Positions 5,160 to 63,555 of a stretch of DNA of 64,000 nucleotides are shown one piece after another; the first letter of the stretch is position 1, and the number at the start of each line of letters is the position of its first letter. The notes below the pieces were generated by a model, which did not search any database, was not told the origin of the DNA, and saw only the letters and a program-made list of their open reading frames with translations. Origin of the DNA: Blasia pusilla. Its lineage: Eukaryota. The stretch is taken from positions 28,830,001 through 28,894,000 of the forward strand of contig CM114271.1 in assembly GCA_050084515.1 (NCBI GenBank), written 5' to 3'. The translations under genes and the position numbers were made by a program.

Positions 5160-6154
5160 GTGAGTACAAAATGTAGCAGTTCAGGTGTCTCATGAGCTTG
5201 ACTATAACTCAATCTTCAATACCTTTGAGGGAGAGGATGGTGTCTTTGCTTCACAACAAGCTATTTTGCCTATTTATTTGGAGTGGTGGAACTTTCCTCT
5301 ATAGTCGCATCTGCTCTCGCAGCCTTTTTGGGGAGCTGGGCGTTGGTAGCACCGATTATGGCTTCAAGGTTTCTCCAAGCAGATACACCTATCTTGATGG
5401 ATCATATCGCCCATGTAGAGGAGGGAGACTTGTTATTTCAACATCAACTGAGATCTACACAAGCTCTTCTTCCTCTTGCTACACAAGCAATTCTAAGCCC
5501 TTTTAGTCAACTAATTACGGAAGGGCTTAATCGACTTCAAGAGCATATCTCCAAGAATTTGCATCAAATGAACTTTTCCAACATTCTCTCCGAGGCATCC
5601 TCTGACGCTAATCAAGCTCGTCTACGTTCATGTGCGGGTACCACAACGGGTGCGTGGCTTACTGCAAATCCTGTTATTCTTCCATTTCATCTTCCTCGAA
5701 GTATATTCTCGATAGCTTTGTGGTTACGTCTTGGACTTCCCCATACTTCTTTCTTAGGTGTGCCAAATTGTGTATGCGGGGATCCCATTGATACCAATGA
5801 TATCCATATTTTTTGACGTGCACATGGTGGAGAACGAACGGCCACACATGATGTCATTAGAGAGGCGGTAGCATTGGTGGTTCGTACTGCAAGATACACC
5901 GTTGGGCAAGAGCAACTCTATGTCCTACCTTCAACCACACAAGCAACCTCTCGTCGAAGAGTGGATCTTGTTATGTCTCGAGGTGGATTCCGGACACTAG
6001 GTGATATGGTGCTTGCTGATCCAACACGTTCTGACTTGGTGTGTCGAGCCGCACATACCAAAGGTTTGGCGACCGAAGCAGCAACAAGAATCAAGGAGTT
6101 AAGTTACGTTGTGAGACATGCGACTGATGGATTATTCCTTTGCAATAGAAGTAT
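5160..6154 (+). mobile_element. CRE-clade-like non-LTR retrotransposon fragment (post-RT region, zinc finger and restriction-like endonuclease), left part
   Basis: Translated motifs QQAILPI, AAFLGSW, ARLRSCAG..GAWL, LRLGLP, CVCGDPID...H..(C)..GGER...HD, RRVDL, D...DPT and K...Y match the RLE C-terminus of CRE/Cnl1-like elements. Interrupted by the gypsy insertion at 6155. Confidence 0.75.
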
Positions 6155-6670
6155 TGCCACGTCTTTTAGAATAGGTCGTGGAGATATAGTAGAGCACCTT
6201 CGTGAGTAGTGGAGGACACGCTCAGTAGGTCGAGGATGACCTGATGAGGCCCCGAGAAACCTGAGAGAGCAGGTTTCCCCTTCGTTTCGACTCATTTGGA
6301 GCCATATTGAGGAACTTACTATTTTAGGTAAGTATTATTTTGAGTATATGATCGACTTTCTATTTTTGGTAAGTGATAATTGACCTCCTACATTAGGTCA
6401 AGAGCCAAGGAGGTGACTTGGGAGAATAGGTTACCATGGAGAGAGCTTGGGAGAGGGGAGGGGTATACCTCAAGGAGAGAGAGCTTGAGAGCTCATTCTC
6501 TCTTTGTTGAACCTCTTGGCATGAGGCGGCGGAACTATGGTCCCTTGCCTTGTGAGTGTAACCCAAGCCTCTCATTAGGAGAGTGGGTTTGGTTTGACAT
6601 GAGAGAGAGTGCAGACCTTTGAGAACTATGGTGTGAGATGGTGTAGAGAGAGATTGGATCTTACTTTACA
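6155..6670 (+). repeat. Terminal repeat A1 of copy 1
   Basis: Highly similar to 15979-16492; ends ..cttactttaCA. Confidence 0.9.
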
Positions 6671-7249
6671 AAGAGAGAATGAGAGAGTGAGAGAGCTTCA
6701 TAGGGGAGCTCGCTGGTCACTCGCTGTTTTTCCAGGTTGGGGACCGTGCTTCCCATTCAACGGCTCATGGGAGTGCTCACCGGAGCAAGGGCTGCTTTGA
6801 TTGTTCTTTGCATTTGCCGATTTTTCGTGTGGAAGAGTGGCGCGCGAAAACGTAGCCCAAGTTCTGATAGGGATTGATTATGGGGGCAGGTTGCCCCATG
6901 TCGGTGCTCTCGGGAGCACCATGTAGCTTGCTGATTTGTATTTTTATAGGTTTTACATTTTGGTTGGGAGAAATCAGCACGGAAGCGTTGCCCAATTTTG
7001 TGTAGGAGAAAGAGACATTGGGCATTACGACAGTCCCCGTCAATTTTTACTGGAATGTCCAATTCCAAAAAATTTGACGTTGTTGTAGATCGTAAAGCTA
7101 TGCATGTTGTGCAACAAACAATGCGCAATTTAGAGTTGCGAGTAAAAAGTTATGGTCAATATTGCAAAACTGCCATTGCTAGGCGATTTTTAGGGTTAAA
7201 TTGTTCAAACCCTAAACCAGCGGCCATGCCGGCGGCAGCCGTCGCCGCA

Positions 7250-7355
7250 CCGTCACCGATCAATGGTCAACCATCACTATGGATGGTCAACCATCACCAT
7301 CAACGGTCCGTCGTCACCATCAACGGTCTACCGTCACTGTCAACGGTCCACCGTC
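7250..7355 (+). repeat. Degenerate ~20-bp tandem repeat (ccatcaccatcaacggtcnn), about 5 units, in the gypsy 5' leader
   Basis: Directly visible. Confidence 0.7.
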
Positions 7356-8146
7356 CACCGGCCACCGTCGGCCGTTGCCGTTGCCCAGCGTTGCTCAGAG
7401 CTGCATTCGGCCGTTTTCCACCCTTTGGTTGCCATTGCCGCCATTACGAAGTGGAGGGTCTTCCACGACCATCGTTGATTCTCTGACTTGCGCCGCCACC
7501 ACGTACTTTGGTTTGGCCGCCACCGTCATCGCAGTTTCGTCATCAACCAGTGATGATAGATGACCTCCAGTTATGGTGTTTGAGTTTTGATTTCATGTTG
7601 CTATGTTGTGATTGGTAGCCTCCCGACGACGATCAAGTACCGTGCCTTGACGCCCGTAGCTGCAACGCGCCGCCGATTGCCGCGCCGTGCCGCTCGTGGC
7701 CGCACAACACCGTCGATCGCGGAGCCGCACCGTCATTGTGGAGCAGAGTGTGGGTTTATTTTTTATTGAGGAGGATATGCCACCGAGTGCCGCATCCCAC
7801 CATCGAGGGCCATGCCGTTCGTAGCTGTTTTGTGCCGCCTCCAATGCCGCACCGTTTCGCTGGAACCGCACTGTCCATCAAGGATTTTTAAGCATCGTCA
7901 GTACGGGAGGAGTATGACTTGTTGATTGGAGGAGTTGTCTCCACAACCAAGTTGGGGTCGAGATTTGCAGTTGCTGAGGAGCGACATCAACATGTGTTCA
8001 GGTTACCCGTTTTGGTCCTTTACCCTACACGTGTGAGGGATTCTGGGATTTTGGTAGTTTATTTGGGGATATTGGGTGTGTGGATGCTGAGAGCATCATT
8101 TATGTATGTGGTTTAGGGGACATAGACCTGTGTGGGATGTCTGGAG

Positions 8147-8405
8147 TTGAGGGTAGGTTGTCGATGAGATGATAGCCTGGTCGATTTGCCGCACCACGCT
8201 GCTTATTGCCGCACGTTACACGTCTCCGGGAGGGAGAGTGTAGATCGAGTGCCGCATGTTTGGGATGAGTGATTGAGGGTAGGTTGTCGATGAGATGATA
8301 GCCTGGTCAATTTGCCGCACCACCCCGCTTGTTGCCGCACGTTACACGTCTCAGGGAGGGAGAGTGTAGATCGAGTGCCGCATGTTTGGGATGAGTGATT
8401 GAGGG
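8147..8405 (+). repeat. 126-bp tandem duplication upstream of gag
   Basis: Units start at 8147 and 8273, with a partial third at 8399 (ttgaggg..). Confidence 0.9.
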
Positions 8406-11319
8406 ATTACTTGCGAGGTTGAAAGTGATCGTGTGAGATGCGTGTAGAGAAGTTTGTGCACGAGGCACGAGGGCCATCAGGGCGTCCTTTCAGGATTTTG
8501 AGAGGCAAGGTAGTGGACCCGAGAATAGCTTTGGAGGGTTTGCCCGGAGTGGTGCGAGGTTTCGAGAGTCTCCACGTGAGAGACCATCTCGATCTCCTTC
8601 TGTGTCGTCTTCAGACGAGGGGGAGTGTGTAGAAGAGTTTGTGAGCACATCGCCACACATTGTGAGTGGTCCTATTAGGTGCACGTACGAGATGGACGAT
8701 CGGGGTAGAGGACCATGTAGGTTTTCAGGTGTAGTAGGCACGATTGAGTTGCACAATTTCATAGCAGAGTTTAGGAGTTGGTGCGACTCCTAGCGGGCCA
8801 CGAACTCTAGAGAGTTCAACCCTTTTACAGCATGGAACGGTATGTTCCAACATTTAGAGGGGACGCCCATGGACAATTACCATGAGTTCTCTCAAAGATA
8901 TGCACGTGAGATCGAGGCGTGGAGGCTCTACTATGATCCACATTATGTGTCATGGATGGAGCTGTTCCCAGATGAGGAGGAGAAGTCAAGAGAGGCTACT
9001 TCCTCTTCCACTAGTGATGTTTTAGGAGGGGTCACTCGTACGGGAGCAATTGGACCGTCTCGTCGGGTTCGTCCCAAGTTCAACCCTGTGGTTGAGTTCT
9101 TTGTTGAGTTGAGGGCGAGCTACCAGGGGATACGGATGGAGAAGTTGCGGAGCATCCACGACTTCCAGAGGCGCCCGGGTGAGAGTTTGTGTGAGGCTTA
9201 CACTCGCTTCCACCGATTGATCAACGTCACTCAGGGGGTGACAGAGGCTCAGGCTATCCAGTCATGGTACGCGATGCTGGACCGGATCCTGCGGACACAG
9301 GTGCGGGAGGGGGTGCTTCTTATGAACATCTCCCCTACGTTGAGAAATGTTTTTAGGACTGCCAAGAACATTGAGCGCAACATGGCGGAGGAGAGCGTAA
9401 CCACCATGGGTTCTGGGCGAGAGCAATCACGATTGACTGCACTACCTGTGCAGTAACGTGGACTTAGAGATAGGTCAACTGTGGCACCACGAGCTCAAGG
9501 AGGATGCCGGGAGGCCGTGCCACAGAAACCTGCGCCTTCATATGCGGCTCAGCAAAAGCCGCCTTCTATTACTTGTTGGTCATGTGGTGGAGCCCATCAT
9601 CAACGCGATTGCACTTGTCAGGGTCATGGACGTGTGTCTCAGCATGGAGGAGGAGATGGTGCTGCACTAGGAGGTTATCAGTGTGACTATTGTCAGAGGT
9701 ATGGTCATACACGCGCGAGGTGTTTCACTTTACATCCTGAGTTACGTCCGGACCGAGGGCCACAGAGAGCACCACAGCGAGTAGCCGGTCCGAGTGGGCT
9801 ACAGATCGTGCACCAGGTGGTCCCGTTGGGAGACAAGGAGCTGGAGTTTCCCAATAGGGTCGTGGAGCTGCCCGTGGAGGAGGTAGAGTCCTTCCACCTA
9901 GACGCGTCGAGGGAGATGCCGGGCGTGAGGCTAGGATGGAGCAGCCAGAGATATGGAGGATCCTGGTTGGATGTGCGGGGTTGCCCACATGGAGGCCGCC
10001 GCAGTTGTGACGGGTGGAGCAGCCGCAGAGTTGGATCCACAGCAAGGGGAAGCCAAGAAATAGACTAGACTTCCTCAATCTTTCACGTTGTCCGAGGCGA
10101 TAAGGACCCCATCGATGGGTCTGGATTAGAGTTCCTGAAGATTTGGTGACGTTGTTGGTGTGCAAGCACAAAGGGCGATGGGAGAAGCGAGTGCAACGAC
10201 TCCTGTTGTTGATGCTCAGGAGGGGCATGTGTCGAGCACGTTGTTGGGGGCGGCCACCATTGTGTACCGCGCTCCTTTATTTTCTGCGTCTGATGTTATG
10301 ACGTAGGGGGGTACGCCCGCCGAGGCTTTTCGGCTGGCCGCTACGCTATGTGAGTGTGGAGTTGGAGTTCCTGCATCACGTTCAGAGGTGATTGCAGAGG
10401 AGATGATGGACCTGCCCTTGGAGTGGATACTCGGGCTGTCCACGTCAGATTCATGGTAGGCTGTGGTTGCTAGGATGGCGGAGATGCCCGCTAGACCCGC
10501 GATAGAGTGTGCCATGGCTTCTCCTGGTGTTGTGTTTTTTGGTTAACCGAGGAGAGGTCTTCCAATTGGTGAGTCCCGGAGGTAGAGCTTTTAGTCCGCA
10601 GCACATTTTGTTGGATTTAGGAGCGCAACCCTTGATGTTGGGAAAAGCGTCATTCAAAGGATTGGGCTTGACGAGAGCCGATGTGGAGCGTTGTCCATTG
10701 CGGATACAGACATCCTTGGGTGGAGCGAGTACCACATAGTATATCACCCGACAGGAGGTCGTGGTGAGGATTTGCCCGGGACATCCTACAGATGAGTCTG
10801 TGGTGCGAGCCAAGGCAATAGTGACTAATGTAGAGTCCTACGATGTCTTGGTTGGTGGAGCAGTGTTATACCCGATGGGGTTTTCCCTGGATTACTGGGC
10901 AGAGTCAACGTCCTACAGACCAGGATGGCAGTCAATGATGGATGACTTAGCTCATTACCCGTTCGATTCACATGTGCAGTGATCGAGCAACGGCCAGGAG
11001 TGATGGCGACCTTAGTAGCATTTAGCAGTGCCATTACTTTGCCTAGTGATTTGATTGAGGGACATGTCCATGCAGAAGATACTCCCGTTCCTGACATTTC
11101 TATGGAGACGAGTGTTATGGTAGTCGCATCATTCCGTGGAGGAGAGGTGCCGTTGTGGGGCTCGACTAAGGAGCTTCAACGATTGGCAGATGAGCACGTG
11201 CAAACCGCATGGAGCAAGGTGTTTGCACCGGAGCATGACGGGTCTGAGGAACCCGAGGTAGCAGGGAGTGCTACCATGATACCCTTGGATACCACACCCA
11301 TTGTGTGGTGTACCCCGGA

Positions 11320-12270
11320 GGAGGGTATTCGAGTGTTAGATCTCTTTGGAGGAATTAGCATCGCGTTAGCTGCTGTTTTGCAAGCAGGAATGCGAGTACA
11401 ATAGTACCTATATGTGGAGAGTGATGATGTTGCGAGGCGCATCTCATTACAACATGTGGCGCAGTTACGCCTACGTTTTCCTGACTTATTGTTTGCGTCC
11501 GTGATACAGGGATACCAGAGTTCCCTACCAAGGGATATTTCGTTGTTGGGGGCGCAGGACTTACAGCGGGTAGGGACCATTGATTTGGTCATTTCTGGTT
11601 GGCCATGTCAGGGCCAATCGAGTGCTGGATAAGGCAGCGGGTTGGCTGATACTCGATCCATGTTGTTTTGGGAGATGTTGAGGGTCTTATGGCAGTTGTA
11701 GGAGCACCACTCTCGTTCTCCAGCCTACATTCTGGAGAATGTGCCCATCTTAGGAGACTCCAGGTCACGGGTCGTAACGAGTGCTCATCAAGTGTGTGCC
11801 TAGATCGGCCCAACAATGTTCTTGGATGTGGCGAGTATAGGTTCTAGAGCCCATCGCCCCCGTTTATGGTGGACCAACTTGGTGCCCCATACGATGTTAT
11901 GGAGGGCGTATGCGAGAGTGGAGTGCCCCTCCCATTTGTTAGTGGATTCCATTCTGAATGCAGGTCGTCGATCACAGGCAGTGAGGCACAATGATCCACC
12001 ACCGTTGACTGTGGTGAACAGGGTAGGCAGGCCGTGGGCAGCCTTTCCCACGTTTGTGAGTTTTCCCGCTTCCTATGCATACAAGAAGGCCCGTCCTGGC
12101 TTGGTTTGGGATGACCAGGTTCAGAGGTTGGTGGAGCCCAACGCCAACGAGAGAGAGTGGGCAATGGGATTCCCCCCAGGAGTGACGGCAATCCCGTCAG
12201 TATCAGAGGCATCACGACGCCATGTCTTGGGTCAGGCGATGGACCTGAACTATTTGACATGGATCTTTAG
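11320..12270 (+). pseudogene. DNMT3-like C5-cytosine methyltransferase domain within Pol
   Basis: Motif I VLDLFGG (11333-11353), motif IV GWPCQ (PCQ 11603-11611), motif VI ENV (11735-11743), motif VIII AHRPRLWWTNL (11849-11881), motif IX ERE.AMGFP, motif X RRHVLGQAMD. Same reading frame as RT, broken only by in-frame stops. Confidence 0.9.
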
Positions 12271-15200
12271 CTTGGGAGTGGCTAAGCAACATCGGATGAG
12301 ATCGCGACAGATCACAGCGGTTGTGTTGGTGAGCCCCATGCCTACCGAGACGGTGGAGGCACTGGCTAGGGGCGAGACCCGAGGAGATCGACACACCAAG
12401 GGAGATCTAGAGAGACACCCTTGGACTTCTTGGGATGTTTTGCAGGTACGCCAGGAGATGATAGCCACAACATCGAGCGTGGTTCCGGGCACTGCATGTG
12501 GAGGAGATCAGAGTTTGCAGTTGGCTATAGGAGAGCGGTCGAGTGTTGTTGTTCGAGACGGGGTTGCACCATAGCAACCACCGATATCCGCATCGGAGAG
12601 TCCTACCGTAGTCACGATGGAGACTTGGGAGCCAAATATGGGCCCTAAGTTGATAGTAGGAGATCGGTGCCGAATACATCCGTTCCTCAGGAGTTATAGG
12701 AGCTGCTTTGCGTTTAGCATGGAGGATTTGGGTACGCTGAAGGGACCGGGGATCCGCATTGAGTTGTCGAGTGATACGCCGATCTTCCGACGACCCTACA
12801 TGTACAGTGATATGGAGAGGGCTCCGATTCAGAGTCGAAGCCAGGACTTGGTTGGAGCAGGACTAGTGGAGATGTCGCATGGGGAGTATGCATCTACCAC
12901 TGTCATGCCCGCCAAGAAGGATGGGCATGGTAATTGGACGCATAGGCGGATGTGTGGGGATTACCGATCTATCAATCGACAGACAAAGTCCGATAGGTAT
13001 GCCATGCCCACCCCTGAGGAGATCTTTGATGCGATTCGTCGTGCAAAGGTTTTCAGTTCATTGGATTTGCGAGCCAGATACCATCAGCTGCCTATCAGAT
13101 TGGAGGACAGGCACAAGACGGCATTTTGGGGCATCGATCCTCATGGGAAGGATTGTTTGTACCAATGGCGGTTCTTACCATTTGGGTTAAAGAACGCCCC
13201 GGCTGAGTTTTAGAGGGTCATGGATAGGATCTTGGCTGGTCTGGATTTTGGTAGGTGCTATATTGATGACATGGTAGACTTTAGCGCCACGATTGAGGAG
13301 CATGAGCGACATCTAAAGGAGGTGTTTGGAAGATTGCAATTACATGGGCTGAAGCTACATCCAGACAAGTGCAAGTTCTTCTACGACCAGATTGAGTATT
13401 CGGGTCATACAACCTAGGGGGCCTTGGTGTTTAGCAGACAAAAGTAGAGGCTATCTCACGCATTCCACGCCCTACAGATGTGAGCCGTGTTCACGCATTC
13501 ATGCGATTGGCGAACTTCTATCGGCGGTACGTCAAGGGATTCAGTTCGATTGCAAAGCCGTTGACCTTGCTGACCAACGTGGATCACGAGTGGCACTAGG
13601 GGGATGAGCAGGAGCGAGCATTTCAGTTGCTCAAAGATATGTTGATGTTCGCGCCCATCTTGAGGAGACCAATCAAGGGGCGTCCTTTCCAGTTGCACAC
13701 AGATTGGAGCATGTTGGGGCTTGAAGCGGTGCCCACCCAGTATGATGATGAGGGTAGAGAGTTTGTGGTGGCTTACGCTAGCCGCTCAAACAATGCTGCA
13801 AGGCAAAGTATAGCTCGTATGAGGGTGAGTGCTTGGCTGTGGTGTGGGTTGTCGCGCATTTCAGGTATTACTTATTCGGCAATCCCTTTACCATCATCAC
13901 TGATCATCAACCACTGAAGTGGTTGATGGAGTCCGACAAGCTTACACGGAAGCTTGCGAGATGGGCTCTGTTGTTGCAGGAATATGATTTTCAGGTGGTA
14001 CATAGACTTGGGAGGCTCAACCAGGATGTAGATGGGTTGAGTCGTAACCCATGCCCAAGTCAACGAGATGCAACTAGAGCTTGATGGCATGGAGAGAGTG
14101 ATGAGAAGTCAATGCAAGGATGGCACGCGTCAGCCTATTTAGGCATGTTGGCTATGGAGAGCCAGAGTATGGAGATTTCAATGGCGAGGTCTAGTGAAGA
14201 GTCCTTGGAACCCGAGGCCAGTGAGGAGACGAGAGATGGCCGAGATATTCATGATGATGGAGTAGTCTTGGAGTACCTTCGGACTGGCAGCATTGCGAGC
14301 ACCGTGGGTGCTAGAGAGCAAGATCGGATCCTGCAGCGGGCCAGACGGTTCCGTTGGGAGGGGACACATGTTTCAAGGGTTTGGGAGGATGGCAGAGTAC
14401 GCATAGTGCCGCATCCTTCGCAGAGAGCACAACTAGTGCAGCATGCCCACGAGGAGTTGGGTCACTTTGGGGTGAAGCGGACGTACAACTTGCTTCAGAT
14501 TCAGTATTGGTGGCGAGGCATGCAGACTGACGTTCAGCAGTTTATTGCGAGGTGCATGGTGTGTGATCGGATCTGAGCATCGTTCAATGCTCCGACTCCA
14601 CAGTTGCATCTATTACCGATCATGGGCTTAGGGTATAGATGGAGTTTGGATTTTGCAGGACCTTTGCCTTTGACGGAGCGTCACAGTCGTTATGTGTTGG
14701 TGATGGTTGAGCACTTCTCGAAGTGGATCGAGTTGGTTACATTGCCTGATAAAGCGAGTGAGGGAGTAGCTCATGCCTTCCTTGATAGAGTGCTGAGTCA
14801 TTATGGCGCACCGACTGAGGTGTTGACAGACCAGGGTACCGAGTTTTGCGGTGAGTTCCACGCCTTGTGTGATTAGGCATTGATCGACCATCGCATAACT
14901 TCGCGAGATCATCCTAAGGCGGATGGATTAGAGGAGAGAGTTGTGTAGACAGTGAAGAGGGGTTTACGCAAGTATGGCTTGCAGAGAGGTCACCTAGGAG
15001 ATTGGGACCTTCAGTTGCCCCGGTTGGCGATAGGATACAGATTCAGCAGGCAAGCATCCTTAGCGTCTTTTTCACCGTACTTGCTACTTTATGGCCGAGA
15101 GCTAGATTTACCTATGGCCATTCGTTGAGATGATGGTGAGGTGCTGGACCTTGATGACCCAGATGTATGGATGCGAGCATGTTCTTAGAGGGCTGAGTTG

Positions 15201-15525
15201 TTTCAGAGAGTGATGCCCATGGCGTTCGAGAACTTGGCGATTGAGGTATACGACTATTCGGGGTGGTGGTTATCGACCAACTATCCGTAGGTTTCATCAG
15301 GGAGATTATGTCTACTTGCAGCAGACGACACCGACGACGTTGGATGTGACTCCAGGGTGCATTATCCTGAGAGTGCGTGATGTTTTGCCATCCGGTGTTC
15401 TCTTGTTGGAGAGACGTGATGGTATGGTATGGAAGGACCATGTGCGTAATTGTGCGCCATGTCACCTTCCTAACATTGATGGTACAATAGATCCGAGCTT
15501 AGCAATAGTTCCTACAGGCTTGCAT

Positions 15526-15663
15526 TGTATGTTGTGTGGTTCTGCCCGTGGTGCGACCACGATGCTAGTCTGTGATGGATATTCGAGAGGTTGGCATATG
15601 GCATGTCTGATGCCACCTCTCACTAGGGTTCCTCGGAGACGATGGATGTGTCCCAAATGTACA
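15526..15663 (+). other. PHD finger at the integrase C-terminus (copy 1)
   Basis: CMLC..MLVCDG(Y)SRGWHMACLMPPL..VP...WMCPKC fits C4-H-C3 with the conserved W; the fourth Cys has decayed to Tyr here but is intact in copy 2. Confidence 0.88.
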
Positions 15664-15850
15664 TAGAGGAGATACTAGGTAGGTTTCGATTCCGAATTTT
15701 TCTGTGACATGGATGACAGGAAGGTGACTAACGATGGGGCCATATGAGCACCCGACCTTCTTGCTCTTAGCGTTTGAGAGATGTATGTCACGGTAGGTAT
15801 GGATAGATGGCTATCTAGAGTTAGAGGGGCCTAACCACCAGCTAGGGGGG

Positions 15851-15976
15851 TGATTGGAGATATTTTAGTACTTCTTGTCTCGTTGGATGTCATGAGTAAG
15901 CATGGGATCGTGCGTGTTTGTGTGTGTGTTCGGTGATAGCGATGTATGTTGTGTAGCGATGTGTATGTGCACGACA
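15851..15976 (+). repeat. Repeat B1 of copy 1, directly after the polypurine tract (AGGGGGG, 15844-15850)
   Basis: TGATTGGAG...GTGCACGACA; repeated at 16492-16602. Confidence 0.88.
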
Positions 15977-15978
15977 AC

Positions 15979-16602
15979 TGTCCCGTCTTTTAGGATAGAT
16001 CGGTGAGATGTAGTAGAGCGCCTTCGTGAGTAGTGGAGGACACACTCAGTAGGTCGCAGATGACTTGCTGAGGCCCCGAGAAACCTGAGAGAGAAGGTTT
16101 TCCCTTCATTTCGGCTGATTTGGAGCCATATTGAGGAACTTACTATTTAAGGTAAGTACCATTTTGAATATATGATCGACTTCCTATTTTTGGTAAGTAA
16201 CCCTTGACCTCCTACATCAGGTCAAGAGCCAAGGAGGTGACTTGGGAGAATAGGTTACCATGGAGAGAGCTTGAGAGAGGGGAGGGGTATACCTCAAGGA
16301 GAGAGAGCTTGAGAGTTCATTCTCTCTTTGTTGAACCTCTTGGCATGAGGCGGTGGAGTTATGGTCCCTTGTCTTGTGAGTATAACCCAAGCCTCTCATT
16401 AGGAGAGTGGGTTTGGTTTGACATGAGAGAGAGTGCAGACCTTTGAGAACTATGGTGTGAGATGGTATAGAGAGAGATTGGATCTTACTTTATTGGAGGT
16501 ATTTTCGTACTTCTTGTCTCGTTGTTTGGATGCCATGAGTTAGCATGGGATCGTGTGTGTTTGTGTGTGTGTTCCGTGACAGCGATGTGTATGTGCACGA
16601 CA
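15979..16602 (+). repeat. A2 (15979-16492) fused to B2 (16492-16602)
   Basis: A2 matches A1 and B2 matches B1. Separated from B1 by the 2-bp spacer AC. Confidence 0.9.
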
Positions 16603-17005
16603 ATATTCAGTCATTTACATGTATCTTTTGATACTTTCCTGAAAACATCTACTCATCACTCCCTCGAGAATCATCACCTTGCCCCTTCTTGTAGTCCTTC
16701 TCTCTCGGTAGTTACTACCTATTCTCGGCAATGCATCTCAGTGGCCTTACAATGTGCACAAGCCTTGGCATTGATACATCGTGCAGAGGTGGTGGGGAGT
16801 CACTCACCTCGTCGTCCATTCATGTCTAACCAACCTCTCGTGTTCTTGTCAGTTTGTTTCAGGCTATCAATCATGTATCTCGTTGAGCCGATGTTTGCGT
16901 TGGCTTGTTGCCATTTTCTTTTTGCATTCGTTTATGCATTTTTTGACTCCTCTTTTGAGTTGGTATTACCTTTCTTTGTCCTCTTTTGAGGTTTATTTTA
17001 TAATA
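16603..17005 (+). mobile_element. CRE-like non-LTR element, right part (end of the RLE domain and 3' region)
   Basis: FSHLHVSFDTFL....ISVALQCAQALALI continues the RLE domain cut at 6154. The 3' boundary is approximate. Confidence 0.7.
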
Positions 17006-17089
17006 AAGTGGATATAGAAATTTTTTACTCTTTCCATATACATGTTTAAACTTCTCATAGCATTCTCACGTACACTTTGGAATATAATA

Positions 17090-17763
17090 TCTATGTATCT
17101 GTATATATTATAAAGGGCAAACCCATATGCACGAATAATACCAAAAAATAATAAGATAATAAAACAAAATAGAAACATGCGAAAATGGGTCCAAATGTTT
17201 TCCTCGACCTTATAAGATGGGTAGAAAAATGAAATTGATGAAAAAAAAATTTCGAATTATAAAATTAGGATAAATAAAAAAATTATATTTTAATGGATCA
17301 TAAAAAGTGTATATAAAATATAATCATGAGATAAAGATCATTAAAAAAAGCATTCCTTGACTCATGGGAAGGAAAAACATATTTTATTGGAAATGGAATA
17401 GATACTTTCGAAATTTTATGGAAGGGTGGAAAAGAATGAAATTTTAAATAATCAAATTATTCTCATGTCATATTTTGGAAGGAAAATTAATTTTAATGGA
17501 AATGGGAGATGATTTCGCTAATTGAGATTAACTAAGAAGTTAAATGATCAATATCATTTTGGTGGGAAAAATAGAAAAGGAAGAATAGATATTGTTCAAA
17601 CTTTCGTAGAGGAGTGAAATTAATCAGGGGAAATGAGTTTTATTTACAAATAATTTTTTTATTCTTTTAAGATTTAAAAATATATAAATTACACTCAAAT
17701 GTTTTAATGGAAATATTCCTGGAATATTAAAAATTATTTTTTGTGCACGGTCATGCTAACTAG
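17090..17763 (+). mobile_element. AT-rich non-autonomous Helitron-like element
   Basis: 5' end A|TCTATGTATCTGTATATATTATAAA; 3' end GCACGGTCATGCTAACTAG|T (half hairpin plus CTAG); no TSD, inserted in AT. Confidence 0.55.
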
Positions 17764-17919: not shown

Positions 17920-18846
17920 CTAGTTAGCATGCCGTGCTTACACATGATTTTTTTTTCCTAATTAGCATTCTTTTAAATTGTAAGAAAATGAATTTTCTAA
18001 TAATTGAAAACTCTTTTTCAATTAAAAATTCAAATATACTTTCCATTTTTGTAAATTTTAAAAGATTGATAGCATTTCACTTTTAAATAATACCTTACTC
18101 TCCTAAATAGTTTTACTCCTCCATAAAAGTTTGAACCATTTTGATTAAGTTAAAATATTTCCAAGGGGACCGTCGAGGTTACATTAGTTTGTTAGAGGGC
18201 CCCTTAAGCAAATTCCTCCCATTTCTACTCTTCCTACCAAAATAACATCCACTAACTAAATTATAAGTTAACTTTAATTAACTAAATCATTTCCCTTTTC
18301 CATTCAAATTCATTTTCCATTCCCAAAATATGGAATATGAATATTTTCAAAAATAATCATATTTTTCATTTAAAAGTTCAAATCTAAATTTTCTTTCCTT
18401 AAATCTTGGAAGAGTAATAACATTTTGCTATTCTAAGTAATTCCACTCCTCACTTAATAAATAAAAATATTCCAATCCCCTAAATAATCACACCCTTCCA
18501 TAAAAAATTTTAAATATCTACTCTTCCTCTATTAAAATTTATTTTCTTTCCCATCAAATATGACTCAAAGAATTTTAAAAAAATTGGCTATTTTTCTATT
18601 GCTTTCATTATTAGTTATTATGCACACTTAGCATCATTTGTTATGATGTAAATTATTAATCAAAATTTTTTTTTTATTCCATTCAATTTCATTCTCTATA
18701 CCCATCTACTAAGATCTAAAGAAAAAACGAAGCATATTGTTGTTTTGCCATATTTTTTACTATATTATCGTATTATGCATATGGAGTCGCTACTTATCAT
18801 ATAGATTATTTTATTGTGCATGTTGGGCCGCAAATTATTATATAGA
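17920..18846 (-). mobile_element. Related Helitron-like element, tail-to-tail with the previous one
   Basis: Minus strand reads A|TCTATATAATAA.. and ..TAAGCACGGCATGCTAACTAG|T. Confidence 0.55.
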
Positions 18847-34000: not shown

Positions 34001-34745
34001 TGTCGTGTGCTTACTCTCCTTGAGCGTAAATCTTTAGTGTTGCGGAAACGTGCGTTCAGTAGGACATACTCTCAATGTTGATCTACATCCAAACACACTC
34101 ACATTAGTCTGGTCTGGGTCAATGAGTACTCTAACTCACCGAGTTCTCGACTCGGCCTCTCATCAAGCTCAACCTTCCTAATTTCTCGCTTTACAACACA
34201 AGCAAGTCTCTTGAGACTTAGGACAAATTTTTTGGTTGGTTCAGGAACCTCAAATGGCGTTTGCACGCCTAGAGGTTCCAACTATCCAATGGACCTCCAA
34301 TGAGTCCCTAATCGAGACTCACTAAAAGGAGTCGCGGATTGGAATCCAAGTGCGGCTTTCGGAATCCACTCCCTTGGATCATGTTTGGGTTTCTAGTCCC
34401 AACACCAAACTCCCGTTCCCTTCCTTGCCCTTGAGCCGCCCTTTGGCGCCCAAAGTGAGGTTTGGGTCCCAAGAATCCTTAGAAAAACTCCTCCTTACTA
34501 GAACTTCTAGAGATCACCACCCTCCCCCTAACTTTGGGGAAAAGAAGGTCGGGCCCCTCATTTTGGCCCTCGATTCAACTTCCCATACAGTCATTTCTGG
34601 CCAATATCTTAGCTTTTTTCTTTTGTGTTTGCTTTGATCTTTAGTGCGTTGAAACCGGATTTGCATAAGCTTTCCAACGCCACCTTATTTGTCTCAAACA
34701 CATATCGAGACTAAACGTTATGGTCCAAAACACAATCAAAACCCC
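34001..34745 (-). mobile_element. LTR (3' portion) of a conventional LTR-retrotransposon family, split by copy 2
   Basis: Reverse-complement similarity to the solo LTR 38285-39252 (e.g. aatctttagtgttgcggaa.cgtgcgttcagtagg); continues at 43461. The left edge is approximate. Confidence 0.7.
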
Positions 34746-37700
34746 TATCATGACCATACGGATTATGTCGTAGAGTATAGTGTGCTAGTAGAGGCCATAC
34801 CTTATGTAGGGCTGTAGAGTCTAGGTAGAGATGCGATTTCATACATAGGGTTGGGGGTTACTCAATTGAGGGTGACTTTTCCAATAGGGCCCGCACTTAG
34901 GTTGGAGGATATAGTGTGGAGAGCACTCAAAGAACAGTTAGTTCTTTGAGTTGAGCCTGTTGCGTTGGGAGTTACCCTTGGTAGTGAGTAGAGCTCTTGG
35001 CTATGGTGGTTCCCGCAAGCTTCGACCTGGATTCTCCCATCGTGGAGTGGGTTTGGCTCGATTGTATGTGATTCTATACGTGTTTTATGACAGTAGATCT
35101 TTCACGGATTTCACTCAAGGAACTGGAGAAGATCGATGGTAGCTTCGATCGTGGATCAGTAGGATCTGGTTAGGGCTGATTGTGTACTCAGCCGTGGATG
35201 TTCGTGGCTTGTGGCCTATGTTGGAGGTGGGAATCTGGTGCGTGGTTGGTTGAAAAAGAAGCGCCTTGCTGAGAGCTTTCCAACGCGCTTTAGATCGTCG
35301 GATTTTGTCAAGGGAGTTGGAAGTCATCAAGGATTGAAGGTTCTAGTTCATGTTCGAAGGTTTTCTGATGTGGAGAGCTTGGAGTGCGGAAGCTGTGTTG
35401 AAGCTCATCCAGATCGGGTGAGAGGTTCCTATTGCTACCTGTATTGTGATCTCATGTGAAGCTATCTGCTTGAGTGTGTGGAGCGTTGCGTATTTCTGTG
35501 TGCATGAATCTCGGCGGAAGCGTTGTCGGATTTGCGATTCTGGAGGTGTGCGGAAAGCAAGTTTGTCTGATTTTTAGCTCGGAGTACAGAGCTGGGTTGT
35601 AGTTGTTTTTTGTGGAGAGATAGCTATGGTGGCCAATTGAATTTAGGTTGAAACAAATTCAATTTTGGTTGAGGATTTGTGGAGTAATTGCTGATCGAAA
35701 TTTTGCGGACTAGCTCAAGGTCTGGCTATGGTGGACAGCAGATCGGAGGGGCTGGTTGGTTGGTGATTTGTCCGTTGTTGGAGGCTTCGAGGCAACTCGT
35801 GGTAGATCGGGGCGAGTGGGCGTGAGAGCCCGAGTAAGGAGCAAGCAAGCAAGCTGCTTGCTTGGGCGTGAGGCAGTTTTTCCAAGATTTGTGAGTTGAG
35901 TGTTGCATAACTGGTCACCCATCTTTGGGCTATTCTACCTGGAAGACGCTTATCTGCTGAGTTCTTAACTATGCCAGTGTACACACTGGTGTAGCTCATT
36001 TGATGTTTTTTGGAGATGTGTTAGGCACTTTATGCATCTTGGGTTTTCGGTTGATGGACCTCTAGCGCATAGTACGGTGTAGCCTCTCCATGAAGGTGAT
36101 ATTTTCAAGGCCTGTAAGTGCGACTAGCGCGTCATCGACCAGCGGCCGAGTAGCTATTGCGTTAGAATTTTGTGGTGGATTTTGTGGATTCAAGGGGCGC
36201 CACGTTTGGTGGATTTTGTTACCTTGATTTCCATTTGCGATTGGAGGGTTGTCATTGGATTTCCTGTATTTGGATCCCCTCCATCGTTGCTTCTTGCTTG
36301 CGCGCCCATTGTTAGGGTTGACATTGATTTCCTGAGTAGTGTTACTCCTGTGTGCTACCGATAGTGAGGCTGGAGTGATGACCAGTAGACCGTGGGAGGC
36401 TTCTTGTGGCGATGATAGGTTAGGTTTCCTACACCCATAGCTAGTAAAGCTAGAATAATACAGCGACATCGACGTCACTTGGTTACTTAGTGGTGGTGAT
36501 TTGGTGGTGGTGCGGCATCGGCGTTGGTCATCACGGAGCTGTCTGTTGGTCTAGTTGGGGACCGTGGTGCGGACAATGGTGGTCTTACACGGAGTGGATT
36601 GAGGTATCGGCTACCTTTTCCACTTCCGACTGGGTGTAGGCAACCTAACGTGTCCTCCTCGTCCTCCTCTTCACTTGGTGTTCCAAACACCGAGTCTTCT
36701 ACGTTGTTATTGAGTGTTGCAGCTCCATTGATTTGGGACATGGACGGGATATATGGGGCCATGAAGGGCCCACGATGATACTCGGGTGCAGTGGGCACCA
36801 TTGAGTTTCAGGACTTCATTCAAGAGTTTGATACGTGGTGTGATATGCAGATGTTGCGGAACGCCATATTGTTTACATCCTTCTTGGCTTGGAAGGGGTT
36901 ATTTCAGCACTTGGAGGGACCACCCATGGATGATTACCATGAGTTTAGGAAGGACCATGTTGCTGAGATTGAGGCGTGGGGACAATATTGGTCTCCAGGC
37001 TATGTGTCTATCACCCATGGTGGTATTGGTAGTAGTGCTCCTACTTTGCCAACCAGCCCGACGTTGAGTGGTACGAGTACGAGCAGGAGTGGGGGTACCA
37101 ATGGAGATACCCATGGAGATTCTAGTGGAGGTACCAGTGCCCCACCATCGTTCAGCCCGGTTGCAAGTTCTTCAAGAGGTTGAAGAAGAACTATCAGGGA
37201 GTGAAGATAGAGAAGTTGAGGAGTCTTCAGGAATTTGAGCGAAAGACTGGTGAGAGTCTTCGTGAGGCATACACTCGTAAGCGACCCTTGATTTCAATTA
37301 CCCAGGGTGTGACTAAGGCTCAGGTAGTCCAGTTTTGGTATGGGATCTTGGACAGAGAGTTGCGCTGCAGGGTACGTGATGCTACTCTTATGAGTGATAA
37401 TTCACCCACATTGACCCATGTATTTGCTCTATCTGAGAAGATTGAGCTTAATATGGTGGAGGAGAGAGTGGTGACATCTGCATTCAGTAGGGATACAACT
37501 ACTACTTCTCGTGTTCAACAGTATACCTCACAGTCTCATAGTAGTGGTGGTGGTAGTAGTAGTGGGAGTCGTGGGGGGTACACACGACCTCAATCAGGTC
37601 CTAGAGGGACACTTGCGCAGAGACCATTTCCTTCAGTTGCTGCCCCGCAGCAAGGACAGTCATGTTGGACATGTGGAAGTGATCATGTTAGGAGGTTTTT

Positions 37701-40700
37701 TCCCCAAGAGGATGGGAGACGGACTTTGGAGGATGGGCTTCAGTCGGCCCCAACTCAGTGTGATCATTGCGGGAGACCATGTCATCCTCGAGAGCGTTGC
37801 TTTGATAGTAGACACGGATGCAGCATCCACTGCAGTATTGCGGATGGCAACTTCAGTGTTGGGATCTCCATTGTTTTCAACCACGGAGCTGATGGCTTTA
37901 GGAGTTGACTTAGCTCCTGTATTTCAGCTAGCAGGCACGTTGTGTGAACGTGGGGGTGTTACTGCTACACATGTTGAGGTGGATGAGGGTGTTGCAGTGG
38001 AGCGACCCTCTATGTCAGGTATAGCATTGAGTACCAGTGCTACTTGTCAGGCAGCAGCGGCGAAGATGGATGCATTACCATCCCGGCCAGCCATTGATCG
38101 TGAGAGGCTTACACCTCGTGTATGTATAATGAACAACCGGAGTGGGATATTCCGATTGGTGAGTCCTACAGGACATGTGTATAGACCAGATAGAGTCTTG
38201 TTAGACTCTGGTGCCCAACCTTTGATGTTGGGAAAGGCGGCATGTATTGGTTTGGGTATTCGGAGGTCAGAGCTTGAGCCTTACTATCGCGACCCTCATG
38301 ACCAAATGAGTGCCAAGCGGAACATTGGAACATTAGCGGGCTCACGCTAAGATGGTTTGCGCGTTGGAGTAGTCTCAAAGAGGAGACAAGAGACGAGACG
38401 CGAGCGAGGCTTCGCGATTCAGATGTTGTGGTCGCGACCAAGAAACCTAGACCAAACGCGGAATGAGACTTGAAAGAAGTCGAGTCTAGAATCCGGATTG
38501 GAACGCCACTAGCGTTTGAGAGTTTCCGACTGTATTTATAACCATAACTTTAGCGCCAAGATGCGTTTGGATTAAATAAGGGTGTGTTGGAAAGCTTATG
38601 GAAAGCCGGTTCAAATGCACTAAAGATCTATGCAAACGCATAAGCAGCGGCTGAGAAACAACCCGGAAACGACTATAAGTGGAGTCGGGTTGAGGGCCAC
38701 AATGAAGGGCCAGACCCTCCTTTTCCAAAGGGGGGCCTACTGGAGAACCCCAGAAGTACTAGTAAGGGGGAAGGTCTCCGAGAGTGCTTGGAACCCGAAC
38801 CCCACTTTGGGCGCCGCGGGGCGGCTCAAGGGCATGGAACGGAACGCAAGTTTGGGAGTTGGGTTGGAAAACCTGAACCAAGTCCATGAAGGCGATTTTA
38901 GACATCCCTCTTGGATTTCACACCGCGACTTAATTACTTGGGTCTCTGTTTGGAGCTCACACGAGGTCCGTTGAATAGTTGGGATCGCTAGGCGCGCAAG
39001 TGCCGTTTCAGATCCCTGGACTAACCAGAAAGTCTGTTCCAAGTCTTGAAGGACTTGCCATGTTTTGGAAACTAGGAATTAAGGAAGGTTGAGCTTGATG
39101 AGACGCCGAGTTGAGAACTTGGTGGGTTGGAACGCTGGTTGGCCCAGACCGGACTAACGAGAGTGCGTGTTTGGGTGCAGATCGGCGATGAGATCGTGAC
39201 CTACTGAACGCACGCTTCCGCAACACTAAAGATTGACGTTAGGGGCGCGACACTTGCCCATTCCAGATTCAAACATCACTTGGAGGAGCCAATGATAGGT
39301 CTCAATTCATGACACGAGAGAAGTTGTCTGTAGAGTTGAGACCAGATCATGCGAGTGATAGCTCCCGGTTGGGAGTATCTGCAGTGGTCACATCAGCCGA
39401 GTCGTATGATGTACTAGTTGGAGGAGCAGTATTGTACCCGATGGGTTTTCAGATGGACTACTGGACTGAGGCAAGGTCTTATCGACCTTGCATAAGACAT
39501 TTTATTGGCAGTCCGGAGATGGACGTATGAGCCAGGTTCCTGTGAGATTTATTTATGGGGCTCGACCAGGAGGGTCTTCCCCAACGGTGTTAGCATCTAT
39601 GGTTGGTTTTAGTGGAGTAGTCACTTGGCCAGGAGACTTTTTGGAGGGTAATGTTTCTGCTATGGATTCTCCTGTGCATGAGGAGGTAGAGGAGGTCCCT
39701 TGTTTTGCAACAGTGGCATCTTCATCGTTGGATGTGTCACTTTGGAGTTTAGGCGGTGCACTACGGCAAGAGGCTGATCGCCTAGTGCAGGAGGCTTGGT
39801 GTGAGGCTGTTATATATACCTCACGAGGAAGAGAAGGCTCCACAGCAGACTCCTACTTCTGGTCCAGTTGGGTTATCCCCTTTGGATACTACACCCATTG
39901 TATGGCAATATCCGCCGGAGGGCATTTGTGTGTTAGATCTCTTTGGTGGGATTAGCACTGGTTTGGTTGCAATGTTGCAGGCCGGTATTCCTGTGCGGAG
40001 ATACATGTATGTGGAGGGAGATGAGACGGCCCAAAAAATCTCATCCCAACATATTGGTCAGTTGATGCGGAGATATCCTGAGTTGTTGCCGCCATCAGCT
40101 ATTCGTGGGTACCAGCGTGCTTTGCCGTCACACATTGATAGTATCTTGGATACTGGACGACTTTCTCACGTGGTGAGGGTTATTGATCGATCACCCATGG
40201 CAGTGGTGAACCATGTGGGCCAGCCTAGGATGGCACTAACCCGATATTTGTGAGTTTTCCCTTGTCACATGCCTACAGAGAAAGTGGTCCCGAGCTTGTA
40301 TGGGATTCTCATGTGCGACAGTTGGTGGAGCCTAACATTGATGAGAGAAAGCGTGCGATGGGATTTGCTACTGGCGTGACAGGGGTTCCTTCCATTTCTG
40401 AGGCTTCACGACGTCATGTGTTGGGTTAGGCCATGGACCTGGATTTTGAGTCTCGGGATGGCCGAGCAACGTCGACTTCGGACTTTGTCTATGGATCTTC
40501 CACCCCTTATGATGAGCTCCATGGCTACCTGGACGGTAGAGATATCAGTTGGGGGCAAGGAGAATAGTATTTTGCATCCTTGGAGTAAATTGGATGCATT
40601 TTGGGGTGTCAACTCTTATGGCAAGGATTTTTTGTACTAGTGGAAATTCGTACCCTTTGGGTTGAAGAATGCATCTGCCGAGTTTCAGAGAGTGATGGAC

Positions 40701-43460: not shown

Positions 43461-43755
43461 TCCCAAATGCTAGTTGCATTCCAATTCTGGTTCTCACCTC
43501 TTTGGCTATCAAACTTCTTAGACTTGACTCATCTCAAGTCTTGGTTCACGTTTGGTCGAGGTTTCCTAGTCGCGACCATAAACGCATGAAACATACAAAC
43601 TCTATTCGTACGTTTTGTCACTTGGACTCTTCCAAGAGACCTCTCCAAAGCCCAACCATCTATCCTAGCGTGAGCCCGCTAAAGTTCTAGTGTTCCGCTT
43701 GGCATTCGTTTGGTTATGAGGGTCGCAACACATTCCCTCTCCCAAACTCTCTCCT
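43461..43755 (-). mobile_element. 5' portion of the split LTR (43461-43730) plus its PPT (~43731-43755)
   Basis: Reverse complement of the start of the solo LTR (..gagggtcgcaaca). On the minus strand it is preceded by the purine tract ggagagagtttgggagagggaatg. Confidence 0.75.

Positions 43756-48459: not shown

Positions 48460-48542
<83 letters not shown>
48460..48542. repeat. (AT)n microsatellite, about 41 units
   Basis: Directly visible. Confidence 0.98.
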
Positions 48543-59761: not shown

Positions 59762-60850
59762 CACTAATTAGCATGCCCATGCTCGCATAAGGAAATGACT
59801 TTTTCTTTTAGTAATTTAGAAAGACTTTTTTATTTCAAAATCCAAATATAATCTCCACTTTCTTAAATTTTAAAGGATGAATACCTTTCTCCTAAATAAC
59901 TTTGTTCTTCACTTAAAATTTAAATAATATCTCATTCCCCTAAATAAATTCATCCCTTCATAAAATTTTAAATAATACTTACACCTCCCCGAGCCTCCCT
60001 CCACTTCTCCCACTAACTAAATTATTCGTTAATCTTAATAAATGAAATCATTTCCCTCTCTCATTCAAATTCATTTGCCGTTCCCAAAATATCAAATGTG
60101 AATCAATGAATAATAGGCTAGTTACCATTTTGTCTTATTATCTCACTATTTTTTCTTATTGTGTATGCCAATAATAAGATAGATAGACTAGTTAGCATGT
60201 ATGTGGGTACACACAAAAAAGAAAGATTTTTCATTTCAAAAGTCAAATATAATCTTCACTTTCTGATCTAGGGGAATTGAATAATAACACTCCACTCCCC
60301 TAAATAACTCCACCCTCCATAAAAGATTATATAGTGCCTACTCCTCTCCCTCCAATCCTCCCCCAAAATAACACTCATTAACGAAAATATTAGTTAATCT
60401 TACTTAATTAAATCATTTCCCTCTTCCATTCAAATTCAAGGAAAACATCAAATATGAATCAAGGGAAAAAAATTGTATTCATGTACTATTTTGTTGTGTT
60501 GTGCATATTGGGTGGTATTTGCCCCCATAAGATGTTTGTGCTTACGCACGAATTTTTTTAAATAATTTAGAAATCTATTTTCATTTCAAAATTCAAATAT
60601 AACTTTCACTTTCTTAAATTTTAAAAAAGTAACAGCACTCAACTTCCCTTAATAATTTTACTCCTTAACATTTAAATGATACCCCACTCCCCCATTAACT
60701 CCATCCCTCTATACAAATTTAAATAATACTTATTCCTCCTACTAACTAAATGATTAGTTAATAGTCATTATTTTCATCTTCCATTAAAATTTATTTTCCC
60801 TTCCCAAAATACAACTTTTTTTATAAAATTATTTGGATTTTATTATTTTA
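59762..60850 (-). repeat. Tandem AT-rich repeats of the same Helitron-like family as 17920-18846
   Basis: Recurring actagttagcatg ends (59763, 60187), hairpin gtgcttacgcacg (~60538-60550), and repeated cccctaaataa / aatcatttccc blocks. Confidence 0.5.
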
Positions 60851-63495: not shown

Positions 63496-63555
63496 GTCTG
63501 TGCTAACACTTACCATAAACTGTCGTTCATGGGTTGGTCAGTATCCTCGAAAGAC

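Follow-up and report, generated by a model that had tools for sequence, protein, structure and literature searches.

The stretch of DNA analyzed here, referred to in the following as the window, comprises 64,000 nucleotides of the genome of Blasia pusilla (GenBank assembly GCA_050084515.1, contig CM114271.1, positions 28,830,001 to 28,894,000 of the forward strand). At positions 6155-16602 it contains an old and degenerate copy of a Ty3/gypsy retroelement whose coding part includes a DNMT3-like methyltransferase and a PHD finger. This copy does not possess an identical long terminal repeat (LTR) at each end; a repeat that we call A stands by itself at the 5' end, and the 3' end consists of the succession B-A-B. 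The split-repeat layout, A-(primer site ... polypurine tract)-B.A/B, in which the dot denotes the B-A junction and the slash the joint between the second A and the second B, is a family trait that recurs in independent insertions. From the structure of the element ends we consider it probable that the integrated DNA is a permuted copy of a molecule with the LTR B.A, whose ends would have been joined as A/B and which the DDE integrase would have opened at a palindrome and inserted with a 4-bp stagger.

Split direct repeats in a Ty3/gypsy element

The repeats of the copy at 6155-16602 and the sites that accompany them are listed below (TSD, target-site duplication).

6151-6154, plus strand: left TSD, GTAT, placed by the joint 6133 to 16604 of the empty-site paralogue and by the sequence
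6155-6668, plus strand: A1, 5' terminal repeat, starts TGCCACG, B on neither side; 93.0% identical to A2 over 514 nt
6492-6506, plus strand: stretch inside A1 (CTCATTCTCTCTTTG), exact complement of the 15 bases after A1; putative 5' end of the RNA (start of the LTR region R)
6669-6683, plus strand: primer-binding-site-like CAAAGAGAGAATGAG, of the self-priming type, with neither a TGG nor likeness to a tRNA end
15844-15852, plus strand: polypurine tract AGGGGGG(TG), directly 5' of B1 (run AGGGGGG at 15844-15850)
15853-15976, plus strand: B1, ends GCACGACA (sequence, repeat comparison)
15973-15982, plus strand: B-A junction GACA-AC-TGTC, a decayed form of the palindrome GACAGCTGTC that is perfect in three relatives
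15979-16492, plus strand: A2 (sequence, repeat comparison)
16493-16602, plus strand: B2, 3' terminal repeat, ends GCACGACA (sequence, repeat comparison)
16603-16606, plus strand: right TSD, ATAT (sequence, empty-site paralogue)

Both the repeat search and BLAST found A1 and A2 to agree at 478 of 514 positions, and B1 and B2 at 100 of 107 aligned positions (93.5%), a likeness that is far above chance. Since these two values are so close, both repeat pairs are of equal age. B1 holds a 17-base internal duplication that is missing from B2. The succession A1-...-B1-A2-B2 is that of the split direct repeats known from the DIRS order, and in this respect the initial annotation of the window, which had read the copy as A1...B1-nn-A2-B2, was right.

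At its left end the element reads ...AGAAGTAT/TGCCACGTC, with CAAAGAGAGAATGAG directly after A1, and at its right end ...GTGCACGACA/ATATTCAG. B1 starts as ...AGCTAGGGGGG-TGA-TTGGAG..., the B1-A2 junction (15969-15987) reads ...GTGCACGACA-AC-TGTCCCGTC... with the core GACA-AC-TGTC, and at the A2/B2 joint (16492/16493) ...CTTACTTTA is followed directly by TTGGAGG... (...cttacttta/ttggagg). The borders drawn initially for B1 and A1 have to be moved slightly: the likeness between B1 and B2 begins at (A)TTGGAG, 2-3 bases past the TG that had been named as the start of B1, and that between A1 and A2 stops at ...CTTTA, before the CA that had been taken as the end of A1. The TG...CA pair had been assigned to the outer ends of the B+A repeat; it is located at the start of A and the end of B.

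The layout recurs in independent insertions

From metagenome contigs scanned with the reverse transcriptase (RT) frame of the window we obtained 80 related loci (46-78% protein identity, designated by L and a number), while a search with protein P0006 returned no relative. The A and B parts were placed in every one of the 80 loci with a BLAST library, and loci were merged into one distinct insertion when their flank was identical. In 44 of them the locus includes the 3' end region, and in 36 it stops short of it. Among the former, 18 loci, representing 11 distinct insertions, carry the polypurine tract followed by B-A-B, and in 15 loci (12 distinct insertions) the polypurine tract is followed by a single B and then by flanking DNA; L037, counted with the single-B copies, is ambiguous since another B-A-B stands further on. 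The remaining 3' ends comprise three incomplete or damaged B-A ends, one A-B end, one that could not be judged and six without a recognized polypurine tract and B. On the other side of the coding region, A was found upstream of the RT in 30 of the 80 loci and B in none of them.

The arrangement A-coding region-B-A-B is thus present in the window copy and in its relatives. Neither ordinary LTRs at both ends nor the mirror layout A-B-A...B occurs in any of the 80 loci, all of which are degenerate; a prevalence of ordinary, identical LTRs among the more intact copies, the outcome that would have contradicted the initial annotation, was consequently not encountered. Its proposal that the layout belongs to the family and is not a tandem or deletion product of one copy is borne out by the 11 distinct B-A-B insertions and by a further copy in the window, copy X, which lies on the minus strand, is about 70% alike and reads polypurine tract-B1' (44866-44760)-A2' (44757-44140)-B2' (44139-44005).

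When 28 copies were placed on a tree, the single-B and B-A-B forms proved to be intermingled, with 9 changes as against 9.5 after shuffling, and their end branches were similar; single-B copies are therefore not a separate lineage, and the tree may be reconciled with their origin either at insertion or by later deletion. Skips of about 640 letters between B1 and B2, seen in contigs of about 100-150 letters, join homologous B positions and are uninformative on the distinction between the two forms.

The element ends and their target-site duplications

A paralogue of the empty insertion site joins position 6133 to position 16604 with 20 diverged letters between them, and is represented by four contigs of the DNA run X2 and by RNA reads of the runs X20 (5) and X21 (10), which were chosen by species label; none of the runs listed as containing the stretch is recorded as RNA, and small shares in air-metagenome runs were left aside. 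The empty site reads ...GGAAG/TATTCAG, and the filled site of the window ...AGAAG-TAT(TGCC...GACA)A-TAT-TCAG. From this comparison it follows that the element ends exactly at the start of A and at the end of B. Both flanks, at 5600-6154 and 16603-17200, are repetitive sequence in the host; in run X1 their outermost bins reach word depths of 16758.7 and 14465.5. RNA reads show that the flanks are transcribed through the empty site. They match no Pfam family, and no paralogue of them occurs inside the window.

A 4-bp TSD had been noted for the window copy. In fact its two copies can be read either as GTAT/ATAT, which differ by a single G>A transition, or as a 3-bp TAT without mismatch; clean 4-bp duplications were recovered from the relatives. 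Among the B-A-B copies, L009 (which is the same insertion as L008 and L022) is flanked by CATA/CATA, L012 by AAGG/AAGG, L070 by AATA/AATA and L078 by CATA/CATG, and among the single-B copies L031 and L032 are both flanked by TACA/TACA and L073 by GGTT/AGTT. Hence, the 4-bp duplication is perfect in five of these loci, and three of its four bases agree in L078, L073 and the window. The ends enclosed by these duplications start with TGTC(A/C)... at A and finish with ...CACGACA at B; TG...CA ends with a short TSD, here TGTC...GACA and 4 bp, are those of a Ty3/gypsy element, and 4-bp TSDs are at variance with the absence of TSDs that characterizes the DIRS order. That the integrated ends lie at the CA-nn-TG site and carry 4-bp duplications supports the initial annotation in this point.

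A palindrome at the B-A junction and an exact A/B joint

The B-A junction is a perfect 10-bp palindrome, GACA-GC-TGTC (GACAGCTGTC), in L005, L012 and L044. The spacer GC is also present in L008 and L022; it reads AC in L017, L052, L053 and the window, AT in L042, L064, L078 and copy X, GT in L070 and TC in L009. Except for TC, all these variants are transitions of GC, and ancestrally the B-A junction is the perfect palindrome. Against the family's contigs and reads, the segment 5600-17200 differs mostly by C>T and G>A changes (453 and 456 places in run X1, against 254-272 for the remaining transitions and 32-68 for each transversion). Such an excess would be expected where methylated cytosines undergo deamination, and the family itself encodes a cytosine methyltransferase; the spacer transitions would be compatible with this process acting on the CAG/CTG sites within the palindrome. 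In L076 and L077, some 3366-3377 bases past the start of the RT match, the B-A junction is gone and B is fused to A via a shared ATGAC, a small deletion that removed the palindrome.

Six loci (L009, L012, L017, L042, L044 and L053) share the A/B joint ...CATTTTCA/GTTGTGG (...TTTTCA/GTTGTGG), with transitions as the only differences. In the relatives, A1 ends with the same ...CATTTTCA before CTCAAAGAAC, and B1 starts with GTTGTGG after AGGGGGG(C/T)GA. As the joint is composed of the end of A1 and of the start that follows the polypurine tract, it represents an exact fusion of the end of U5 to the start of U3 (the unique 5' and 3' regions of an LTR). Its initial description as ligated LTR ends, such as those of a 2-LTR circle, is thereby supported.

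Primer site, polypurine tract and transcript

The polypurine run that precedes B1 also stands before B in both other copies of the window (copy X and the copy at 34748-43460, described below) and in 18 related loci. The element thus combines, as Ty3/gypsy elements do, a polypurine tract before its 3' repeat with a primer site after its 5' repeat. Because the polypurine tract lies before B and the primer site after A, reverse transcription should yield the LTR B+A, and this agrees with the earlier proposal that B-nn-A is the real LTR.

The bases after A1 are exactly complementary to a stretch inside A over 15 nt in the window copy and over 16 nt in L012. L005, L073 and L070 display the same complementarity with other letters, so that the two stretches co-vary between subfamilies; as shuffled controls become noisy once G-U pairs are allowed, the number of loci supporting the complementarity is soft. 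There is no tRNA gene within the window with which the primer site could be compared. The pattern resembles the self-priming of Tf1, and if the RNA primes its own reverse transcription in this way, its start would lie inside A, near 6492, which corresponds to 16316 in A2.

Sense-strand RNA reads of X20 and X21 span the whole element. Their depth declines from 120.7-217.1 in the bin with B1 to 36.3-58.3 in A2 and 7.38-11.5 in B2 and the adjoining flank, and molecules end at 16349-16353 (5/10 and 6/26); the poly(A) site is predicted near 16350. Taken with the primer-site complementarity, these reads suggest that U3 consists of B and of positions 1-337 of A, followed by a short R and by the rest of A as U5, which would make LTR = B.A. 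Position 6181 was considered as the transcript start and was dropped for the start implied by the complementarity of the primer site; either start would be a deduction.

Coding content and identity

Frames were read through their stops (X at stop positions) and searched against Pfam; all matches of the window copy fall on the plus strand. Between its terminal repeats the following features were recognized.

8147-8398, plus strand: two tandem 126-bp units, 96% alike (repeat search), in the long leader between A1 and gag
8437-10068, plus strand: gag region with two in-frame stops and a closing stop; weak Retrotrans_gag (PF03732, E 0.0032, below the Pfam cut-off) and zinc-knuckle-like matches
11324-11885, plus strand: DNMT3-like C5 cytosine methyltransferase domain in pol, broken by stops (PF00145, E 1e-09)
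12944-13411, plus strand: reverse transcriptase (PF00078, E 7.8e-26)
13603-13985, plus strand: RNase H, over two frames (PF17919, PF17917)
14415-14915, plus strand: integrase, with an H2C2 zinc-binding domain (PF17921, E 5.8e-17) followed by the DDE core (PF00665, E 5.1e-12)
15526-15660, plus strand: PHD finger at the C-terminal end of pol (PF00628, E 3.2e-09)

The frames are broken by stops and shifts, and the copy is therefore dead. The order RT-RNase H-integrase (rve) is that of Ty3/gypsy elements and is found both in the window copy and in L012, which carries the same set of Pfam domains. The methyltransferase, for which DNMT3A chains are the best solved relatives (E 1.7e-09), is of the Dnmt3 type and lies inside pol, PF00145 being placed between gag and RT. 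The matches to rve and Integrase_H2C2 confirm the identification as a gypsy element with a DDE integrase. No tyrosine recombinase (PF00589) was detected at E<=0.01 in the six frames of the window copy, nor in the plus frames of L012; it is likewise absent from the Pfam lists of related polyproteins, where PF00665 is listed, so that the finding of such an enzyme in family members, which would have spoken against the initial annotation, did not materialize.

The closest named protein among the matches listed is a hypothetical protein of Marchantia polymorpha (53% identity, E 1.4e-177). It is followed by polyproteins, including those of Closterium, with PF00145, RT, RNase H, H2C2 and rve domains, one of which also has a PHD finger. 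The nearest named proteins come from Marchantia polymorpha, Closterium sp. and Chara braunii; no Klebsormidium nitens sequence is among the protein matches listed.

A possible integration route and its alternatives

The route that we consider probable would proceed as follows. The RNA would begin inside A1 and end inside A2. Reverse transcription, primed in the style of Tf1 by the RNA's own 5' end, would produce B.A-...-polypurine tract-B.A, a DNA with the LTR B.A at both ends, and these two ends would be joined as A/B, as in a 2-LTR circle. The DDE integrase would then cut after each CA in one palindrome, that of the 5' LTR, leaving a recessed CA-3'OH and 2-base 5' overhangs like those of ordinary 3'-processed ends. 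By inserting the permuted molecule with a 4-bp stagger, it would generate A-...-polypurine tract-B.A/B. Cutting of the palindrome by the integrase is what we infer because the ends are TG...CA, the TSDs comprise 4 bp and the DDE integrase is the only nuclease encoded. Single-B copies could originate from the same cut on a 1-LTR circle, from cuts at both palindromes of linear DNA, or from a later deletion between repeats.

Several observations weigh against this route. It is read from the end structures, and the circle, the product of cutting at the junction and the activity of the integrase are all deduced from sequence. A 2-LTR circle has two identical palindromes, and the isomer A/B.A-...-polypurine tract-B that would result from the use of the other one is represented in none of the 30 visible 5' ends, as against 11 distinct B-A-B insertions. 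Since only one isomer is found, either a choice between the sites or a rapid collapse of the other isomer to the single-B form is needed. By conjecture, the other isomer, with two long A repeats about 115 bp apart, may collapse quickly; this would also explain the near 1:1 ratio of B-A-B to single-B copies. Furthermore, the A/B joint is uniform in six of six copies of one subfamily, unlike typical end-joining, and such regularity favors a templated or polymerase-made joint over cellular end-joining. The duplication in the window contains one mismatch, it is blurred in the second window copy (34748-43460), and L034 has no matching TSD at its ends. RNA reads show no start at the proposed site at 6492; molecules end at 6181 instead (9/17 and 13/50). 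Finally, all 80 loci are degenerate, with 957 amino acids as the longest open frame, and there is no active master among the copies examined. The initial annotation had envisaged a 2-LTR circle cut at CA-nn-TG by the integrase: the end structures fit such a cut, and the one-sided choice of isomer and the uniform joint speak against a simple circle.

Both of these latter features would be accounted for if the joint were a directional product of the polymerase. A scheme of this kind dispenses with the free circle: the RT would make the A/B joint by a template switch from the end of U5 to the start of U3, giving concatemeric or terminally redundant DNA of which the integrase would use the first palindrome on each side. 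We regard this as unlikely, although the exactness of the joint and its identity in the six copies mentioned above speak for it. The end of A and the start of B, however, are without homology to guide the switch, the postulated product is itself deduced, and the palindrome would still have to be cut; the scheme differs from the permuted-copy route in the origin of the joint and in nothing else.

Alternatively, the family might move partly as DNA, the integrase acting as a Ginger-type transposase on the TGTC...GACA ends and carrying the whole A...B-A-B block along. Short inverted ends with 4-bp TSDs, the uniform A/B joint and the fact that single-B copies have TSDs even without a terminal repeat (L031, L032, L073) are in keeping with this idea. 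We nevertheless consider it very improbable: a polypurine tract before B, a primer site after A and a joint that is their exact fusion show that the ends are shaped by reverse transcription. In addition, the (star-like and poorly resolved) tree of A sequences does not separate A1 from A2 by position, and A1 and A2 of L005 are sisters there with a support of 89. The divergence of A1/A2 equals that of B1/B2, which one would expect of pairs that are both made anew with every insertion.

There is hardly any room for DIRS-like replication followed by tyrosine-recombinase insertion, the mode of PAT, Ngaro and TOC1. These elements have exactly this arrangement of repeats, judging from the structural descriptions in PMC8969392 and the figure legends of PMC5890265, but PF00589 is missing where it was sought and a DDE integrase is present; moreover, the 4-bp TSDs contrast with the lack of TSDs that PMC8969392 gives in its outline of DIRS elements. 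That an ordinary LTR element was altered in this one copy by tandem duplication, deletion or nested insertion, as the age and broken state of the copy and the many nested and rearranged copies of the window could suggest, is scarcely credible in the face of the same layout in a second copy of the window and in 11 distinct insertions elsewhere, of base-exact junctions, of TSDs at the start of A and the end of B, and of the absence of B from all 30 visible 5' ends. Two more specific arrangements, an A+B LTR with a damaged 5' copy and a complete unit in tandem with an internally deleted one, were considered and are excluded by this 5'-end census, the TSDs and the junction sequences.

Other copies inside the window

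Copy X is bordered by a further unit of the family. Its B2' ends with ...CACGATA at 44005, and after AG a new A-B unit (W) of a different subfamily begins, whose A runs on the minus strand from 44002 to 43737 and from 34018 to about 33775 and is followed by a decayed B that ends near 33749. Read on the minus strand, 44866-33749 is thus polypurine tract-B-A-B-AG-A-B, and the A of W cannot be aligned to A2' of copy X. W appears to have come to lie beside copy X either by inserting at the B-A junction of a resident copy or by recombining with it.

The A of W is itself split by a paralogue that surrounds the second copy of the window. This copy, at 34748-43460, has the form A''...polypurine tract-B'' and lacks any repeat. 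Around it lies an inverted paralogue (34025-34737 and 43461-43726) of a 950-bp segment internal to this very copy (38289-39238). The uninterrupted paralogue provides an empty site, GGAAAC/TCTC/AAACGC, and the duplication at the filled site is blurred (CCC/TCCC).

A segment at 45586-47300 (plus strand) covers a copy from RT to the N-terminal part of the integrase. It is flanked by the minus-strand integrase C-terminal, PHD and polypurine-tract part of copy X (45581-44864) and by a 5'-truncated A'-B' unit (47880-47303, minus strand), whose B end (GTACGACA-AC) abuts the antisense integrase sequence; this arrangement is an inversion or a nested insertion. The window also contains, at 48460-48542, a simple dinucleotide repeat that matches its own reverse complement at each 2-base shift. 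Two further repeats are unrelated to the element: an AT-rich dispersed repeat in three copies that are 68-84% alike (18249-18342, 60010-60103 and 60375-60468), and, at 63553-63766, two units of about 105 bp in tandem that are 99% alike.

Relation to known systems and significance

Split direct repeats are customarily regarded as a hallmark of retroelements with a tyrosine recombinase, and PAT, Ngaro and TOC1 are elements of the DIRS order with such repeats. As in the A1-internal-B1-A2-B2 elements outlined in PMC8969392, the internal B1-A2 joint of the Blasia family holds both termini. The DIRS-order elements of that outline, however, possess a tyrosine recombinase and no TSDs, whereas the Blasia family has a DDE integrase and 4-bp TSDs. 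The combination of split repeats with a DDE integrase and TSDs implies that the repeat layout can be separated from the enzyme of insertion.

The layout of a gypsy element with a DNA methyltransferase is already in print, contrary to what the initial annotation had supposed: the legend of Fig. 4c of de Mendoza et al. (2018; PMC5890265) attributes the repeat structure of a DIRS element to KnitGypsy-Dnmt3 of Klebsormidium nitens, and the arrangement of DIRS elements is written A-coding region-B-A-B in the legend of Fig. 1e. The Blasia family resembles KnitGypsy-Dnmt3, by description and not by sequence, in its gypsy domains, in a Dnmt3-type methyltransferase inside pol and in its DIRS-like repeats; TSDs, a palindrome, a primer site or an integration route for KnitGypsy-Dnmt3 are not given in the main text (PMC5890265). 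A full-text literature search for KnitGypsy returned this paper only. A literature search in which most matches were judged by title or by the opening of the abstract yielded no further gypsy element with split direct repeats and no paper on an integration route for such elements, so that the claim of novelty stands for the route. Hence, as far as could be seen, the layout is known, and what the Blasia family adds as new are its TSDs and its palindrome, the exactness of the A/B joint, a putative self-priming site, the single-B copies and the spread to relatives of the Marchantia-like protein.

Integrases of PFV and HIV-1 cleave the palindromic LTR-LTR junction of 2-LTR circles in the experiments summarized in PMC1180852 and PMC1905944. 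In a similar manner, the DDE integrase of the Blasia family would cut an internal palindrome made of both element ends, and processed ends would be produced. The retroviral palindrome of these reports is the U5/U3 joint of the circle, whereas here the palindrome is inside the LTR (B.A) and the U5/U3 joint A/B is carried along uncut. As a consequence, the integrated copy would be permuted.

In the copy-out-paste-in transposition of the IS3 family, a circle with abutted inverted ends and a short spacer between them is the substrate of a DDE enzyme. The members of the IS3 family are bacterial DNA elements that move without reverse transcription, and their spacer stems from the donor flank. In the Blasia family, by contrast, the spacer is inherited (GC and transitions of it).

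Self-priming has been predicted for the Tcn1 clade of mosses and club-mosses by Neumann et al. (PMC6317226). Like Tf1/Sushi and the plant Tcn1 elements as they are characterized there, the Blasia family has no tRNA-type primer site, and the bases after its predicted U5 are complementary to a stretch of its own putative LTR. Tf1/Sushi and Tcn1 elements have ordinary LTRs and usually a chromodomain (PMC6317226); the present family differs from them by its split repeats, its PHD finger and its DNA methyltransferase. The comparison is one of features, not of RT kinship.

With the palindrome, the exact fusion of U5 to U3 and the single-B copies that occur alongside the others, a remark in a figure legend of 2018 becomes a concrete model that is open to bench tests. 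In the organism of the runs X1 and X2 the family is highly repetitive, and programs that search for LTR elements by two identical ends will mis-delimit or miss it. Its bearing reaches to the old question of whether LTR circles are productive integration intermediates. We tentatively put forward, as a proposition that is somewhat more apt to fail than to hold, that circular or end-joined complementary DNA would be the obligatory integration substrate of this family, that its DDE integrase would recognize the 10-bp GACAGCTGTC inside the LTR, open the DNA there and insert the permuted copy, and that split repeats would have arisen independently of tyrosine recombinases. If this is true, the family would be a eukaryotic retroelement counterpart of the bacterial copy-out-paste-in elements.

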